Shown here: positions 1 through 6,027 of the stretch, one piece after another
How positions within the stretch are numbered: the first letter of the stretch is position 1
Layout of the letters: every line of letters starts with the position of its first letter
Assembly: GCF_051903065.1 (NCBI RefSeq)
Contig: NZ_CP178438.1
Length of the DNA stretch: 64,000 bases
DNA from: Escherichia coli
GTDB taxonomy: Bacteria; Pseudomonadota; Gammaproteobacteria; Enterobacterales; Enterobacteriaceae
Reading direction: 5' to 3' (one strand)
Program-made: the position numbers and the translations under genes
The notes under the pieces: model-generated
Databases searched by the model: none
What the model saw: the letters and a program-made list of their open reading frames with translations, nothing else
Told to the model about the DNA's origin: nothing

Positions 1-87
1 TTCACCGCAATGACGTATACCAAAAGCAAAACGTTTAAAACCGAAAATGGTGCCCGTCGCTGGCTGGAAAGAAACTCAGGTGAGTGA
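1..87 (+). CDS. ydfA: 3' end of a small prophage ORF (ydfA-like), truncated by the window edge
   Basis: Frame-1 open from position 1 to TGA at 85-87 (…MTYTKSKTFKTENGARRWLERNSGE*). Position immediately upstream of ydfB/ydfC/dicF matches the K-12 Qin dicA-ydfABC-dicF-dicB arrangement as I recall it. Confidence 0.4.
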   Translation, partial: FTAMTYTKSKTFKTENGARRWLERNSGE

Positions 88-88
88 T

Positions 89-217
89 ATGGATTTCGAC
101 ACAATCATGGAAAAGGCTTACGAAGAATACTTCGAAGGCCTTGCCGAAGGCGAAGAAGCTCTCAGCTTCAGTGAGTTTAAACAGGCGCTTTCCAGTTCGG
201 CAAAATCTAACGGCTGA
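89..217 (+). CDS. ydfB: small prophage protein, 42 aa
   Basis: ATG at 89, 42 codons (MDFDTIMEKAYEEYFEGLAEGEEALSFSEFKQALSSSAKSNG), TGA at 215-217. Below the 60-aa track cutoff. Size and position fit ydfB. Confidence 0.5.
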   Translation: MDFDTIMEKAYEEYFEGLAEGEEALSFSEFKQALSSSAKSNG

Positions 218-246
218 TAAGCGAAACAGCACCGCGAGGAATCAGT

Positions 247-465
247 ATGCAGAAACGAGAACCCGTCATCATCGCGCCAGACTATACCGATGATGAACTT
301 TATGAGTGGATGCGCCAGAAAATTAATGCAGCGCAGGATCTGAAATGGGCTAATGAAGCCAGGGCTAAGCAGGCTGAAAATCTGTCCGCTCTGGAGCAGG
401 ATATCACCAATCTGGAAAAAGCAGCGGCATTAAGCATTGCCAGAATGATTACATACCCGCGTTAG
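247..465 (+). CDS. ydfC: small prophage protein, 72 aa
   Basis: ORF track 247..465 (MQKREPVIIAPDYTDDELYEWMRQ…). Size and position immediately upstream of dicF fit ydfC. Confidence 0.6.
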   Translation: MQKREPVIIAPDYTDDELYEWMRQKINAAQDLKWANEARAKQAENLSALEQDITNLEKAAALSIARMITYPR

Positions 466-805
466 TAGCTAATCAACAAAGCTAAGGTTAGTAATTAAGG
501 AGTTCTCCACGGGTGAGGTGGAGTGCGTGCGCCGGACACGGGTGCGCATCCGGAACTGACAGTTTACTGAAAGGATATTTCCCTGAAAAGTCAGACCATA
601 ACGCGAAAGCGCACGGCGAGGTAGCTGGTTCATAGATAGCCTGTCGTTAAATTTTCATCGACCGTGCGCTTCCGGTTGTGGCAACCCGCGAAATGGCGCG
701 GCGGTAAGTATGGCGGGGTTATTCCTTCCCCGTTGAGGACACCGGGTTGTCAGGTTGACCATACGCTTAAGTGACAACCCCGCTGCAACGCCCTCTGTTA
801 TCAAT

Positions 806-863
806 TTTCTGGTGACGTTTGGCGGTATCAGTTTTACTCCGTGACTGCTCTGCCGCCCTTTTT
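806..863 (+). ncRNA. dicF: DicF antisense sRNA (ftsZ translation inhibitor) with intrinsic terminator
   Basis: Sequence tttctggtgacgtttggcggtatcagttttactccgtgactgctctgccgcccttttt: ggcgg (821-825) pairs with ccgcc (853-857), followed by a T-run at 859-863. Matches the DicF sequence as I recall it and sits between ydfC and dicB. Confidence 0.7.
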
Positions 864-1032
864 AAAGTGAATTTTGTGATGTGGTGAATGCGGCTGAGCG
901 CACGCGGAACAGTTAAAACCAAAAACAGTGTTATGGGTGGATTCTCTGTATCCGGCGTTAATTGTTAACTGGTTAACGTCACCTGGAGGCACCAGGCACT
1001 GCATCACAAAATTCATTGTTGAGGACGCGATA

Positions 1033-1056
1033 ATGAAAACGTTATTACCAAACGTT
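1033..1056 (+). pseudogene. dicB: dicB 5' fragment (first 8 codons, MKTLLPNV) interrupted by IS1
   Basis: ATG at 1033, atg aaa acg tta tta cca aac gtt = MKTLLPNV, the N-terminus of the cell-division inhibitor DicB. The IS1 inverted repeat begins at 1057. Confidence 0.7.
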
Positions 1057-1071
1057 GGTAATGACTCCAAC

Positions 1072-1575
1072 TTATTGATAGTGTTTTATGTTCAGATAAT
1101 GCCCGATGACTTTGTCATGCAGCTCCACCGATTTTGAGAACGACAGCGACTTCCGTCCCAGCCGTGCCAGGTGCTGCCTCAGATTCAGGTTATGCCGCTC
1201 AATTCGCTGCGTATATCGCTTGCTGATTACGTGCAGCTTTCCCTTCAGGCGGGATTCATACAGCGGACAGCCATCCGTCATCCATATCACCACGTCAAAG
1301 GGTGACAGCAGGCTCATAAGACGCCCCAGCGTCGCCATAGTGCGTTCACCGAATACGTGCGCAACAACCGTCTTCCGGAGCCTGTCATACGCGTAAAACA
1401 GCCAGCGCTGGCGCGATTTAGCCCCGACATAGCCCCACTGTTCGTCCATTTCCGCGCAGACGATGACGTCACTGCCCGGCTGTATGCGCGAGGTTACCGA
1501 CTGCGGCCTGAGTTTTTTAAGTGACGTAAAATCGTGTTGAGGCCAACGCCCATAATGCGGGCTGTTGCCCGGCAT
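1072..1575 (-). CDS. insB: IS1 transposase InsB (expressed as InsAB' by -1 frameshift)
   Basis: 167-aa [30 protein letters not shown]…, recognisable as IS1 InsB. Confidence 0.95.
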
Positions 1576-1769
1576 CCAACGCCATTCATGGCCATATCAA
1601 TGATTTTCTGGTGCGTACCGGGTTGAGAAGCGGTGTAAGTGAACTGCAGTTGCCATGTTTTACGGCAGTGAGAGCAGAGATAGCGCTGATGTCCGGCGGT
1701 GCTTTTGCCGTTACGCACCACCCCGTCAGTAGCTGAACAGGAGGGACAGCTGATAGAAACAGAAGCCAC
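1494..1769 (-). CDS. insA: IS1 InsA (repressor / N-terminal part of transposase)
   Basis: 91-aa [46 protein letters not shown]…, recognisable as IS1 InsA with its zinc-finger-like CxxC…CxxC. Confidence 0.95.
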
Positions 1770-1824
1770 TGGAGCACCTCAAAAACACCATCATACACTA
1801 AATCAGTAAGTTGGCAGCATCACC

Positions 1825-2928
1825 GCAAAACAGTTTCCCTCCTCACGCAATCTGGAAAAATTTGGTGAGGCCCGACAAGATTTAACCATAAAAGAACTGG
1901 CTGAAAAATTTCTGGCACTGAAAGAAACTGAAGTCGCCAAAACATCACTCAACACATACCGTGCCGTCATCAAAAATATCCTAAGCATAATCGGTGAAAA
2001 AAATCTTGCCTCATCGATTAATAAAGAAAAATTACTGGAGGTTCGTAAAGAGCTACTGACTGGATACCAGATCCCCAAAAGTAACTATATTGTTACACAA
2101 CCAGGGAGATCGGCTGTAACTGTAAATAATTACATGACAAATCTTAACGCCGTGTTCCAGTTTGGTGTTGATAACGGTTACCTGGCAGATAATCCGTTTA
2201 AGGGGATCTCGCCATTAAAGGAATCAAGAACCATTCCGGATCCTCTTTCGCGGGAGGAATTTATCCGTCTTATCGATGCGTGCAGAAATCAGCAAGCAAA
2301 AAATTTATGGTGTGTTTCTGTTTATACTGGCGTTCGCCCTGGTGAGCTGTGTGCACTTGGATGGGAGGACATAGATCTGAAAAATGGAACAATGATGATC
2401 AGGAGAAATTTAGCAAAAGACCGTTTCACGGTACCAAAAACACAGGCGGGAACCAATCGGGTCATTCATCTTATTAAGCCAGCAATCGACGCTCTCCGGA
2501 GTCAGATGACATTAACGAGACTGAGCAAAGAGCATATCATTGATGTTCACCTCAGAGAGTATGGCAGAACAGAAAAACAAAAATGCACCTTTGTTTTTCA
2601 ACCTGAAGTATCAGCGAGAGTAAAAAATTATGGTGACCATTTTACCGTTGACTCAATAAGGCAGATGTGGGACGCAGCGATAAAACGTGCCGGACTCCGC
2701 CATCGAAAATCATATCAGTCGAGACATACTTATGCCTGCTGGTCGCTGACTGCTGGTGCTAACCCGGCATTTATAGCAAACCAGATGGGCCATGCAGATG
2801 CGCAAATGGTATTTCAGGTATACGGAAAATGGATGTCTGAAAACAATAATGCACAGGTAGCTTTGTTAAATACACAGTTAAGCGAGTTTGCCCCAACCAT
2901 ACCCCATAACGAAGCAATGAAAAATTAA
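1825..2928 (+). pseudogene. intQ: prophage tyrosine integrase, 5'-truncated (open frame of 368 codons continues from the IS1 junction; no start codon until 2134)
   Basis: Reading frame open from the IS1 end to TAA at 2926-2928. C-terminal catalytic domain motifs are visible (…GVRPGELCALGWEDIDL…, …HLIKPAIDAL…, …SRHTYACWSLTAGANPAFIANQMGHAD…). The N-terminus is missing. Confidence 0.8.
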
Positions 2929-3115
2929 TTTAATATTTATCAAATAGTTGACACGTATGACTCTTGAAATCCATAAATTCAAGCGCAGTGCCCAGCCATC
3001 CCGATACTGCTGCTTTCACCAAATCCTTAGTGCTTCTTTCGTGTTTTTCTATTGTCATAATGGTTATCTCTAAAAAAGAGGTAAGATGCGTACTACTTAC
3101 TCGCCGTTATTGGTA

Positions 3116-4135
3116 TTATTCAGAAAAAGTGAGTAAGACTTTGCAGCAATGTTTTTGATCCTGTTCAAATAAACTAATGGCATCAGCAACATGCTGGAAA
3201 TCAAACGTATGGGTAATTAATTTTTCTGGTTTAATTAACCCTTTACTTAACCAGTCGATAACGACCGGAAATTTATTTGCATTTAAGCGTGAAGAGAAAA
3301 TAGAGAGTTCTTTTCCGGTAATTCCTTGCTGAATCACTTCAGACGGTTCACTGGAGAAGCCCATCAATACAATACGTGCCGCTGGAGAAGCCAGCGTTAC
3401 GGCCTCTTTCAGGATAGAAGGATGACAAGCCGCATCAATAATTAATGTCGGCTTTATGCCTTTTTCAGCGAAAATCTCGCCAAGCGGTGTCTGGCTGTTA
3501 TTAATCACCCAGTCAGCCCCGCTCTCTTTCGCTTTTTCCAGTCGTTCATCAATGCGATCGGCAACAATCACATTTTTAACGTTATAGACGCCTTTTAATA
3601 CCTGAACGATCGTCAGGCCGATTGGACCGGCACCATAAACCAGAACGGTATCATTTTCAGTCGGTTGACCATGTCCGGTTACGTTAGCCGCAATGGTAAA
3701 AGGTTCGATCATCACCGCATATTGATCGGCCACTGCTTCAGGAATTTTCCACGCATTTTTTGCCGGAACCACAGCATATTCACTGAAACCACCGTCAACA
3801 TGCACACCTAATACAGCGAGTGTCGTACAAACGTTCGGCTTACCTATAGAGCACGGATAGCAATGACCACAGCTGACCACCGGATCGACAGCAACACGTT
3901 CACCGACTCTGGCGCTTTCCACACCTTCACCCACCGCATCAATGACGCCAAAGAATTCATGTCCAATGACGCGCGGATATTTCGCAAAAGGATTATGCCC
4001 ACGATAAATATGGCTATCTGAACCACAAATTCCGGCAAGTTTTACTTTTACTCGAACTTCACCCGCTGACGGGGTGGGTATTTCACGTTCGATAATCGCC
4101 AGTTGATTCGGTTTTTCAATTAAAATGCTTTTCAT
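3116..4135 (-). CDS. rspB: Zn-dependent alcohol/polyol dehydrogenase-like starvation-sensing protein
   Basis: Start set at the MKSILIEKPNQL Met. GHEF and Cys-rich Zn-binding motifs and a Rossmann GAGPIG are present. Confidence 0.9.
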   Translation of the reverse strand: MKSILIEKPNQLAIIEREIPTPSAGEVRVKVKLAGICGSDSHIYRGHNPFAKYPRVIGHEFFGVIDAVGEGVESARVGERVAVDPVVSCGHCYPCSIGKPNVCTTLAVLGVHVDGGFSEYAVVPAKNAWKIPEAVADQYAVMIEPFTIAANVTGHGQPTENDTVLVYGAGPIGLTIVQVLKGVYNVKNVIVADRIDERLEKAKESGADWVINNSQTPLGEIFAEKGIKPTLIIDAACHPSILKEAVTLASPAARIVLMGFSSEPSEVIQQGITGKELSIFSSRLNANKFPVVIDWLSKGLIKPEKLITHTFDFQHVADAISLFEQDQKHCCKVLLTFSE

Positions 4136-4146
4136 TAACTTACTCC

Positions 4147-5361
4147 TTACCAGTTCCACAGCGTGCCATCTTCCAGACGTGCGACTGGTAGATAAGCAGG
4201 TTCATAGGGATATTTCGCCGCCAGCTTTTCATCGAATTCGATACCAAGACCCGGTTTGTCTCCCGGATGCATATAGCCGTTATCGAAAGTCCAGTTGTGC
4301 GGGAAGACTTCGAGCATTTGTTCGGAATAACCCATGTATTCCTGGACACCGAAATTGGGGACCCACAGATCAAAGTGCAGCGCCGCAGCCATGCAGACTG
4401 GTGACAAATCGGAAGGACCGTGTGAGCCAGTACGTACCTGATACAACGAAGCAAAATCGGCAATCCGGCGCATACCGGTAATTCCGCCTGCATGGGTCAG
4501 CGTGGTGCGGATATAATCGATGAGTTGCTCTTCAATCAGTTGTTTGCAGTCCCAGATGCTGTTGAAGACTTCACCCACAGCGATGGGTGTGACGGTATGT
4601 TGGCGAATGAGACGGAAGCATTCCTGGTTTTCCGCAGGCGTCGGGTCTTCCATCCAGAACATGCGATAATCTTCAATGCTTTTACCAAAGCGCGCCGCTT
4701 CAATAGGCGTTAAGCGATGGTGCATGTCATGCAGCAAATGTTCATTAAAACCAAACTTGTTACGTACCGCGTCAAACAATTTCGGCATGAAATCGAGGTA
4801 TTTCTCCGTCGACCACAGCTGCTCTTCCGGCCACTGTCCTTTGGTTGCGGGTTCATAAGCCAGACCTTTACCTTTCGACATGCCGTAGGTGGTTTTCATA
4901 CCAGGGATTCCGCACTGCACGCGGATGGCTTTGAATCCCAGCTCCTGATGACGGGCATAATCATCCAGAGCTTCATCAATACTGTGACCGGTGGTATGGC
5001 AATAAACCATCACCCCTTCACGAGATGCGCCGCCGAGTAACTGGTAAAGCGGCATGTTGGCAGCTTTGGCTTTAATATCCCACAGCGCCATATCAACCGC
5101 TGAAATGGCCGACATCGTAACCGGACCGCGACGCCAGTAAGCACCTTTATAGAAAAACTGCCAGATATCTTCGATACGGTGCGCATCGCGACCAATAAGC
5201 TGCGGACAAAGGTGATCCTGCAAATAAGAGGCCACGGAAAGCTCACGTCCATTGAGGGTGGCATCCCCAAGGCCCGTAATACCGTCCTCAGTGGTGATTT
5301 TTAATGTGACGAAATTACGCCCCGGACAGGTAACAAAAACTTCAGCCTTTACGATCTTCAT
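4147..5361 (-). CDS. rspA: enolase-superfamily dehydratase (mannonate dehydratase-like) starvation-sensing protein
   Basis: Start set at [17 protein letters not shown]…. Forms a tandem operon with rspB. Confidence 0.9.
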
Positions 5362-5566
5362 GTTCGATTCCTTGCATCGCTTGTCGTGATGCATGAAATC
5401 TACGCAACTGAGCTACTACCATACAAGTATGAAGATCAAAAAAAGCCAGAGTGATCACAAAAAAAGGCGTATATTTGCGCTGTGAATGGTTGACAAAAGA
5501 TGAAATAGAATACCTTTTATCAGCTGACACTTCCTCGTATCTTATTGATAAAATGGATTTATGTTC

Positions 5567-5893
5567 CTACGTACGCCCCCAGCCCGCAACAATGATCAAC
5601 ATGCCGCAAAGCGCAATCAACGCCCCCGTCCAGTCATAAAGAGTCAGTTTCACGCCATCCACAACGCGCAGCCACATCAACGCCGTGCAGACATAAACGC
5701 CACCATAAGCCGCGTAAACACGCCCACTCGCCGCAGGATGCAACGTTAACAACCAGACAAACAGAGCCAGTGAAATCCCCGCCGGAAGCAACAGCCAGAT
5801 ACTGGCGTTTCGTTTTAACCACAACCAGGGCAGAAAGCATCCAATAATTTCACACAGCGCAGTAGCAAAAAATAGTAACGTTGTTTTAATCAT
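5567..5893 (-). CDS. ynfA: UPF0060 small inner-membrane protein
   Basis: Hydrophobic 108-aa product starting [18 protein letters not shown]. Confidence 0.85.
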
Positions 5894-6027
5894 CTTTGTC
5901 ACTTATTGACATCATGTATAGTTATAGGGCGACATAATATCATCAATATAAACACCCTCTTGGTACGTTTTGCGTCCGCAGTGGATGGTGTAGAATCACC
6001 TTTAATCATTCACACAGGGAATGAATT

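Follow-up and report, generated by a model that had tools for sequence, protein, structure and literature searches.

The DNA analyzed here (hereafter the window) is a stretch of 64,000 nucleotides from Escherichia coli contig NZ_CP178438.1 (assembly GCF_051903065.1), and its first 2.4 kb represent the distal portion of a Qin-type dicBF operon. Between ydfC and the gene for the small RNA (sRNA) DicF, this operon has an untranslated leader (466..805; + strand, as are all features below unless stated otherwise). One segment of this leader, here named module B (669..798), very probably forms a conserved structured RNA of the + strand, namely a four-way junction composed of stem P1, P2, Pa/P3, and P4, with a pseudoknot that joins a hairpin loop to an internal loop. 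The segment was delimited by a covariance-model match, and its core, from one strand of stem P1 to the other, spans 675-789 (about 115 nt). This structured module appears to be undescribed in the searchable literature, although an earlier mention of the sequence similarity is possible, and the K-12 RefSeq record annotates nothing there. In blastn searches against 50,697 phage records, the homology of the leader, which is unannotated in K-12 as a whole, splits into separate blocks. Judged from this pattern, the leader is a mosaic of three modules (0, A, and B) that recur independently in other phages. A first-pass annotation of the window had described the region as one GC-rich non-coding leader and overlooked these three independently conserved parts.

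Fold of Module B and Its Support

When the window was first aligned with Tritos, HannyBb, cdtI, pPE4, and P1, a block of about 110 nt stood out as conserved, and compensatory changes could be seen within it. With the covariance model R1, the copy in the window reaches 155.5 bits (E 3e-48), and it is the only one detected across the 64 kb. The closing stem P1 (675..789) pairs GUUGUGGC (675-682) with GCUGCAAC (782-789); 96–97% of its cells are paired, and its pair types include the compensatory sets CG/UA and GU/GC/AU/UA. Inside this stem, the P2 hairpin (686..701; CCGCG 686-690 with CGCGG 697-701) is 96% paired and varies by one-sided changes only. The Pa helix (702..744; CGGU 702-705 with ACCG 741-744) was returned by RNAalifold and also by the single-sequence minimum free energy (MFE) fold. 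It encloses the 5' strand of the pseudoknot together with P3, and its U-A pair is replaced by C-G in P7-like copies and by U-G in two others. P3 (714..732; CGGGG 714-718 with CCCCG 728-732) is a variable hairpin in which pairing is kept despite changes in sequence and length, the variants being CUGGG/CCCAG (phage P1), CCCGGG/CCCGGG, and CGAGG/CCUCG. P4 (744..780) pairs GGGUUGUCA (744-752) with UGACAACCC (772-780) around a 19-nt loop (753-771). Five of its nine pairs show compensatory changes, as in Izhakiella (GGGUAACCA/UGGUUACCC) and in phage P1 (GUUGCCA/UGGCAAC). The P4 loop itself is almost invariant, and a search conducted without it turned up just two single-base variants. The pseudoknot (708..764) connects GUAUGG (708-713) in the Pa/P3 internal loop to CCAUAC (759-764) in the P4 loop and is 99% paired. 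Phage P1 has the compensatory form GCAUGG/CCAUGC at this site, U-G occurs in locus L084 and in Salmonella phage F1055 (the latter as judged by eye), and C-A was never seen.

Among 35 diverse sequences, 94.4% of the cells are paired and 12 pairs show double changes, values that none of 500 shuffles reached. When the partners were slid as a control on the same 35 sequences, pairing amounted to 36–56%. A model-based alignment of 59 distinct sequences gave 96.4% paired cells and the same 12 double-change pairs; over both alignments, sliding the partners left 35–56% of cells paired. The strongest single cases of apparent covariation are P4 of Izhakiella, P4 and P3 of phage P1, and the pseudoknot of phage P1. 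The fold was placed on the + strand, which is the sense strand of the operon, because the U-G and G-U pairs of stem P1 would be C-A mismatches on the other strand. The P3 arm is 26–35 nt long and its lengths fall into all three mod-3 classes (29, 20, and 10 variants, respectively), which excludes a conserved open reading frame (ORF) on either strand.

The other properties that had been ascribed to the leader as a whole stood up in part. The statement that no ORF occupies 466..805 is correct if restricted to ORFs that are long or conserved; mechanical ORF calling gives small ones that overlap the region, of 40 and 36 aa (+ strand) and of 54 and 49 aa (− strand). Because these candidates have lost their start codons in homologues or are broken there by stops, a frameshift, or indels of all three length classes and hence in all frames, they were judged to be unconserved, and a hidden protein gene in the leader was rejected. 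The description as GC-rich is weak for the entire region (52.6% in 466-805 compared to 50.1% in the window, and 49.8% in 466-668), and the GC content is clearly high only within 669-798 (59.2%). Both repeat strings quoted as examples of inverted repeats are present, gcgcatccggaactg at 544-558 and ggcgcggcgg at 695-704. The predicted fold of the whole region is just modestly better than those of shuffled sequences (z −2.34, equaled by three of 100 shuffles).

Distribution and Genomic Setting

A pattern derived from the conserved block found 111 copies among phage records and loci fetched from IMG/VR. Model R1 recovered matching copies in all but one of 100 sources, with scores of 83–160 bits and one copy per source. 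Among the 50,697 phage records, 61 carry module B, and these are Qin-like, cdtI/Stx2c/2H10-like, Salmonella F1055, the Rac-like pPE4, and P7 and P1-like. A pattern scan with one genome per species found the module in Escherichia albertii, Citrobacter, Trabulsiella, Izhakiella, Serratia symbiotica, and P1-like replicons (five Enterobacterales genera). For divergent members, a scan that dispensed with the 3' half gave two point variants only, and blastn with the Serratia copy gave nothing new. Module B was not found in the Rac prophage of K-12.

The extent of the shared sequence differs among backgrounds. The homology block of cdtI/Stx2c-type phages corresponds exactly to 675-797 of the window and that of P1/P7 to 686-782, and the flanks are unrelated in both. 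The homology stops at the base of stem P1, which indicates that module B travels as a cassette. All copies lie within a repressor-controlled early operon. In cdtI/Stx2c, the motif is located about 280 nt past a near-consensus PL-like promoter that follows cI. In pPE4, about 190 nt separate it from the DicA-type operator/promoter region that precedes it, and two terminators in tandem come after it. In phage P1, the match begins about 26 nt after the −10 element of the C1-controlled P1ban promoter. In Salmonella F1055 and Trabulsiella, the motif lies upstream of genes for recombination, PAPS reductase, and excisionase.

Nearly all copies of the motif have a terminator behind them. Among 69 distinct downstream flanks, 66 have a hairpin and a T-run within 150 nt, and two of the three flanks missed by this crude rule contain real terminators. 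These terminators belong to at least six sequence types (DicF and DicF-like variants with differing loops), and the spacing from the motif varies from 23 to 114 nt. The terminator of phage P1 (GCCCAUC-UUCG-GGUGGGC-U6) is unrelated and canonical, with an 8-bp stem and a UUCG loop, and just 4 nt separate it from the end of the motif. The 2.5 kb before ban contained no further terminator-like site on the same strand. Past the terminator the operon continues with dicB, kil, recE, or ban. In loci L018 and L068, the motif lacks an adjacent terminator and runs into a ribosome-binding site (RBS) and an ORF. In L018, a strong terminator on the same strand is found some 1.3 kb further on, and additional genes lie past it.

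Several of these loci have additional features. In phage vB_Apl-pPE4 (L005:3086-3270), a 93-nt tandem duplication of the motif 3' end and the terminator has produced two serial terminators before kil. The early region of this phage resembles that of an E. coli Rac-type phage (DicA, YdaT, Kil, and exonuclease VIII), which is odd for the listed 'Actinobacillus' host. In Trabulsiella (L138), Izhakiella (L144), Serratia (L149), and F1055 (L158:3630-3700), the long terminator hairpin encloses a Shine-Dalgarno (SD) sequence and a start codon (for example GGAGGAGAAGATAATG or AGGAGGAAGGCGACAGTG), and this suggests a small ORF whose initiation site may be buried in the terminator stem. The F1055 leader also contains a tRNA T-arm-like sequence, GGTTCGATTCCAG, about 80 nt 5' of the motif (L158:3405-3430), which may be a remnant of a tRNA or an attachment site. 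In one IMG/VR contig (L175:2409-2540), an interruption of the motif after P3 contains GGATCACCTCCTTA, which is the 3' terminus of 16S rRNA, and this arrangement is most likely an assembly chimera. In phage cdtI (L004:540-728, − strand), the rightward (antirepressor) part of the immunity region has neighboring matches to the Rfam families for C4 antisense RNA (68 bits) and isrK (60 bits).

Known RNA Families and Comparable Systems

No Rfam 15 family was found over the motif (cmscan with E up to 1 on window positions 1-6000 and E up to 0.1 on five phage loci). ARAGORN predicted 0 tRNA or tmRNA genes in 400-1100, and the cloverleaf-like topology of the module is mere resemblance. A likeness to E. 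coli 5S rRNA (GCGCGGYGGU and UGACC..AU.C..AAGUGA) was dropped, as its register conflicts with the structure and the Rfam 5S model gave no match.

The put RNAs of phage HK022 are cis-acting processive antiterminators that need no protein; they are about 70 nt long and consist of two stem-loops and a small triplex. The put RNAs bind the zinc-binding domain of the RNA polymerase beta' subunit, and pausing and termination are thereby suppressed. Module B resembles them as a presumably folded nascent RNA in the repressor-controlled early operon of N-less temperate phages, where it lies upstream of terminators (P1, cdtI, pPE4, Qin, Stx2c, and F1055) and is promoter-proximal in P1, cdtI, and pPE4. 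It differs from them in its length of about 115 nt and in its four-way junction with a pseudoknot. The putL and putR sites were located in the immunity region of HK022 (loci L009 and L010) via their inverted similarity, and model R1 did not match either at E up to 1. Homology to put was rejected accordingly; shared 8-9-mers (GCGCGGCGG and ACCAUGCG) were noticed afterwards, occur in another order, and were treated as chance.

In the N leader of phage lambda, nutL is followed by an RNase III hairpin and then by N. The order of motif, terminator, long RNase III-type duplex, and first ORF/RBS in the operon described here is parallel to this arrangement. However, there is no N gene, and the N-encoding relatives examined lack the motif. 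A lambda-type nut site combines a boxA (CGCUCUUA-like) with a 15-nt boxB hairpin and is read by an N protein whose gene lies just downstream. Neither box was seen by eye inside 669-798, where no formal scan was made, and only a partial UGCUCU occurs 5' of stem P1 in cdtI-type copies. Another parallel is EAR, the eps-associated RNA found in Bacillales, which is about 120 nt long, has several helices and a pseudoknot, and promotes terminator read-through from within an operon. EAR demonstrates that such folds can do this job, but it belongs to another phylum and another type of operon, there is no Rfam match to it at E up to 1, and the comparison is an analogy only.

One annotated feature does coincide with module B. 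The 'dicF-like region' of phage P1 (NC_005856 68791-68892) is the same element, its coordinates overlapping both the terminator and the motif's 3' half. The Rfam DicF model does not match P1, and the terminator hairpin of P1 is unrelated to that of DicF. By this comparison the P1 label is misleading, the similarity being to the leader motif and not to DicF, and we correct it to leader motif.

Possible Function and Alternative Explanations

Based on the genomic setting and on analogy with put, we tentatively favor the possibility that module B is a cis-acting element controlling terminator read-through. In this mechanism, the folded module would act in cis on the elongation complex while emerging from RNA polymerase, and a fraction of polymerases would pass the terminator into the downstream genes. 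Terminated transcripts would give rise to the DicF-type sRNA, and the module would set the ratio of this sRNA to dicB, kil, recE, or ban mRNA. Transcripts that read through would be cut by RNase III in a duplex formed by 860-886 and 995-1024. The more specific proposal, that module B represents a new class of protein-independent cis antiterminators, analogous to put with an unrelated fold, in N-less lambdoids (Qin-, cdtI/Stx2c-, and Rac-type) and in P1, is doubtful. On that proposal, these phages would rely on it to bring RNA polymerase past the first terminator of the early operon, and thereby to set the amount of DicF-type sRNA relative to killer, recombination, or replication genes downstream.

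In other lambdoid phages, terminator read-through is enabled by nutL together with N or by putL. No N gene was found between the promoter and the motif in Qin, Tritos, cdtI, Stx2c, pPE4, F1055, or P1. Two N-encoding phages examined (phiSTEC1589-Stx1c and PhiR5_2) have kept modules 0 and A and a DicF-like hairpin; the motif is absent from both, and stem P1 is closed by a triloop. The layout of L018, with its terminator about 1.3 kb away, was counted as support for action at a distance.

A number of observations weigh against this proposal or against the fold on which it depends. Module B alone is no more stable than shuffled sequence (z −0.94). Its diversity is shallow, with most copies coming from Escherichia phages and the P4 loop being nearly invariant. 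The independent covariation events are few, and P2 and the pseudoknot are weakly supported (for the pseudoknot, by one independent compensatory event). In Qin, the motif is about 870 nt from the promoter and behind three ORFs (ydfABC). A second copy in the rightward operon was not found, including in loci that cover cro and the replication genes, and module B thus occurs once per locus whereas put has two copies, putL and putR. Neither N nor the motif is present in K-12 Rac, and because of this the complementarity between the two (n = 2) is anecdotal. Since phage P1 has a single terminator to bypass, processivity is not required by the data, and multiple in-line downstream terminators, considered as a sign of processivity, were set aside as uninformative. 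Finally, the linkage between motif and terminator could reflect inherited synteny and not functional coupling.

Alternatively, module B may be a scaffold for the biogenesis or stability of DicF-type sRNAs, or the body of an sRNA of about 180-190 nt. In such a role it might position the AU-rich linker for 'direct entry' of RNase E, protect the upstream fragment by blocking 3' exonucleases, keep the terminator hairpin from misfolding, or act in trans, for instance as a protein decoy. This explanation accommodates the DicF-type terminator hairpin (GGCGG...CCGCC-U5, with variable loops/seeds) that is nearly always found behind the motif, the linker with the RNase E site directly 3' of stem P1 in Qin, and the promoter, motif, and terminator of phage P1, from which a self-contained, C1-controlled RNA of about 180 nt would result. 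It also fits that an sRNA, KilS, is annotated in K-12 Rac at the corresponding hairpin. We nevertheless rate it as somewhat unlikely, given that the motif is dispensable for DicF-like hairpins (Rac kilS, STEC1589, and PhiR5_2 have them without it) and that the copies in L018 and L068 run into an ORF with no terminator adjoining. Moreover, neither cdtI nor P1 contains an upstream ORF in need of protection, the linker of cdtI is short, and a specific partner, more than a general barrier, is suggested by the nearly invariant 19-nt loop and the pseudoknot. It is unlikely that the leader is simply passive, a somewhat GC-rich segment processed as in the first-pass annotation, with the conserved block being recently shared mosaic phage DNA that has no role of its own and its hairpins fortuitous. 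Most copies are more than 95% identical, the family has a limited range (61 among the 50,697 phage records, and five Enterobacterales genera in the species-level scan), and the thermodynamic stability is unremarkable; lambdoid phages do exchange short conserved boundary sequences. However, such passive descent does not account for homology that breaks exactly at the base of stem P1 in three unrelated backgrounds, or for substitutions that preserve pairing to an extent that no shuffle equaled. Nor does it account for P3 being swapped for other sequences and lengths with pairing retained, or for loops that are more conserved than stems. An RNA fold under selection would be expected to show these features.

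A pseudoknotted junction directly before an intrinsic terminator is also the classic layout of a riboswitch, and binding of a metabolite or host factor might decide between termination and read-through. Such an attenuator is improbable, because inspection gave no conserved pairing by which motif and terminator could exclude each other, the terminators vary in sequence (that of phage P1 being unrelated) and stand at variable spacing, and no Rfam riboswitch family matched at E up to 1. A role at the DNA level, as a protein-binding site or recombination hotspot, or as a gene for a small protein, is barely credible. The 36-aa (+) and 49-aa (−) mechanical ORFs do overlap the motif, and phage annotators often place 'hypothetical proteins' there, but the P3 arm has indels in all mod-3 classes and conservation does not extend to the start codons of the leader ORFs. 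In addition, the compensatory changes imply base pairing and not a linear protein site, and the G-U pairs fit the + strand only. Control of terminator read-through remains our tentative choice among these explanations.

Modules 0 and A

The other two modules precede module B in the leader. Module 0 (497..576) consists of an SD-like AAGGAG and two hairpins (CUCCAC 505-510 with GUGGAG 518-523, and CCGGA 532-536 with UCCGG 549-553), and its variation is limited to the loops. It was recognized by recurrence with differing flanks in phage contigs, and it is found in many of them with unrelated flanks, including phages that lack module B (loci L006, L007, and L159). Candidate ORFs in module 0 are interrupted by stops or a frameshift in loci L240, L242, and L159. 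In phage phi367, this separately mobile segment of about 80 nt (also present at L007:3001-3073) carries the annotation of a 37-aa ORF overlapping the PAPS-reductase start (ATGA).

Module A (577..668) comprises a boxB-like hairpin and the 5' part of a long stem, as delineated by the alignment, the variants, and the MFE fold. The hairpin (CCCUG 581-585 with CAGAC 592-596) is degenerate in the window, and its relatives have CCCUG/CAGGG or CUCUG/CAGAG. In the long stem, GCGCACGG (609-616) pairs with CCGUGCGC (662-669). In its outer part, the MFE fold pairs CCAUAAC (596-602) with GUUGUGG (675-681), in competition with stem P1 of module B. The idea that module A is a diverged tandem copy of module B, which arose from comparing GCGCACGG/CCGUGCGC with GUAUGG/CCAUAC by eye, was rejected, as model R1 gives it no support. 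Over 247-1056, the window differs from K-12 MG1655 at two of 810 bases, and both differences (614, C for T; 657, A for G) are located in module A.

DicF and the Distal Operon

The final ORF ahead of the leader is ydfC (247..465; 72 aa), as assigned from the ORF list and from what is annotated at the corresponding K-12 locus. Neither the operon promoter nor dicA is within the window, both being located upstream of its first base. The first-pass annotation placed DicF at the end of the leader, and this assignment is upheld. Rfam RF00039 matches 807-858 over its full length (1-52) with 76.7 bits (gathering score 48; E 3e-16), the K-12 annotation maps DicF to 806-858, and the sequence is 100% identical to that of K-12. 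The position between ydfC and dicB also matches the K-12 gene. The feature as a whole (806..863) includes the sRNA (806/807-858), the terminator hairpin (821-857), and the U-run (859-863), and the intrinsic terminator proposed earlier is therefore present, with T859-T863 following the hairpin. A simple terminator scan did not flag this hairpin because its loop is above the limit of the scan; the Rfam alignment does show it. Directly upstream is an AU-rich single-stranded linker (799..806) that contains the published RNase E cut, with the K-12 DicF 5' end mapping to 806 and the dependence on RNase E taken from the literature. A related arrangement is found in K-12 Rac (L161:5406-5503, − strand), in which the annotated sRNA kilS, located ahead of kilR at the DicF-equivalent position, is a terminator hairpin resembling DicF. 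It is preceded by a 'motif-deleted' form of the leader (GGTTGT-AAAT-AACGAC).

The suggestion that a processed operon transcript releases DicF is correct at its core and is textbook knowledge, with nothing new in it. In the accounts of DicF given in two publications, the sRNA is excised from the ydfABC-dicF-dicB-ydfD transcript (PMC5069750 and PMC9438474, citing Faubladier 1990). According to Balasubramanian et al. 2016 (PMC5069750), RNase E generates the 5' end, whereas the 3' end arises either at the terminator, giving 53 nt, or through RNase III, giving 72 nt. The same account refers to the stretch containing dicF as a 'long untranslated region', and a 2022 review regards DicF as the first case of a 3' UTR-derived sRNA (PMC9438474). 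The locus is the same as the one in this published scheme, and the RNase E end, the terminator and RNase III ends, and the duplex within 860-1024 are all consistent with it. The differences are that those accounts of DicF treat the 340 nt ahead of it as an undifferentiated leader, which is modular here, and that dicB has been lost to an insertion sequence (IS1) in the window.

Downstream of the terminator, the fold of 860-1035 (−61.9 kcal/mol) contains a long duplex of about 27 bp (860..1024), in which 860-886 pairs with approximately 995-1024 and the 3' strand stops just ahead of the dicB Shine-Dalgarno sequence. On this predicted structure, the duplex is likely to be the RNase III site that gives the 72-nt DicF, with a 3' end near 878. 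Positions 870-1010 also match part of the Rfam model STnc100 (RF02076, a Salmonella sRNA family; model positions 21-154) with 34.1 bits, which does not reach the gathering score of 47. Similar sub-threshold STnc100 matches (31-39 bits) were found in four of the five phage loci scanned (Tritos, pPE4, STEC1589, and P1). They lie just 3' of the DicF-type hairpin in Tritos, pPE4, and STEC1589, and about 1.2 kb further downstream in P1.

Regulation of ftsZ by DicF is known from the literature (PMC5069750, in its treatment of DicF targets). For the window copy, the predicted duplex with ftsZ (−28 to +26) has an energy of −38.5 kcal/mol, only slightly better than the −33.0 ± 3.8 of shuffled DicF, and 25 of 300 shuffles did equally well. 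This duplex check adds little beyond the identity with the characterized K-12 DicF.

DicF has been kept intact beside a dicB gene that IS1 has destroyed, as the first-pass annotation noted. What is left of dicB is the start codon and seven further codons (1033..1056; MKTLLPNV), identified from the sequence and from feature names in matching genomes, so that the gene is cut after 8 codons. The IS1 copy (1057..1824, − strand; 768 bp, with InsA and InsB ORFs) joins this remnant to an integrase fragment, the middle of a tyrosine-recombinase gene (1825-2928), and ydfD and everything between have been deleted. The dicB'::IS1::integrase junction is present in just two of 5,426 complete E. coli genomes, and the strains with this junction are 23CRST027 and 23CRST031.

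Biological Significance

Module B is found in heavily studied systems, including the Qin prophage of E. coli K-12, Stx2c-converting phages of enterohemorrhagic E. coli (EHEC), and the ban promoter region of phage P1, and yet it has not been annotated in them. If it does control terminator read-through, it would account for the expression of kil, dicB, and recET in lambdoid phages that lack N, and for the expression of ban in phage P1 past a strong terminator located 180 nt from the promoter. It would also provide a second natural fold beside put, the one known class of phage RNA antiterminators. Finally, under the same condition, module B would be relevant to how DicF-type sRNAs are balanced against toxic division inhibitors in the prophages of pathogenic E. 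coli.

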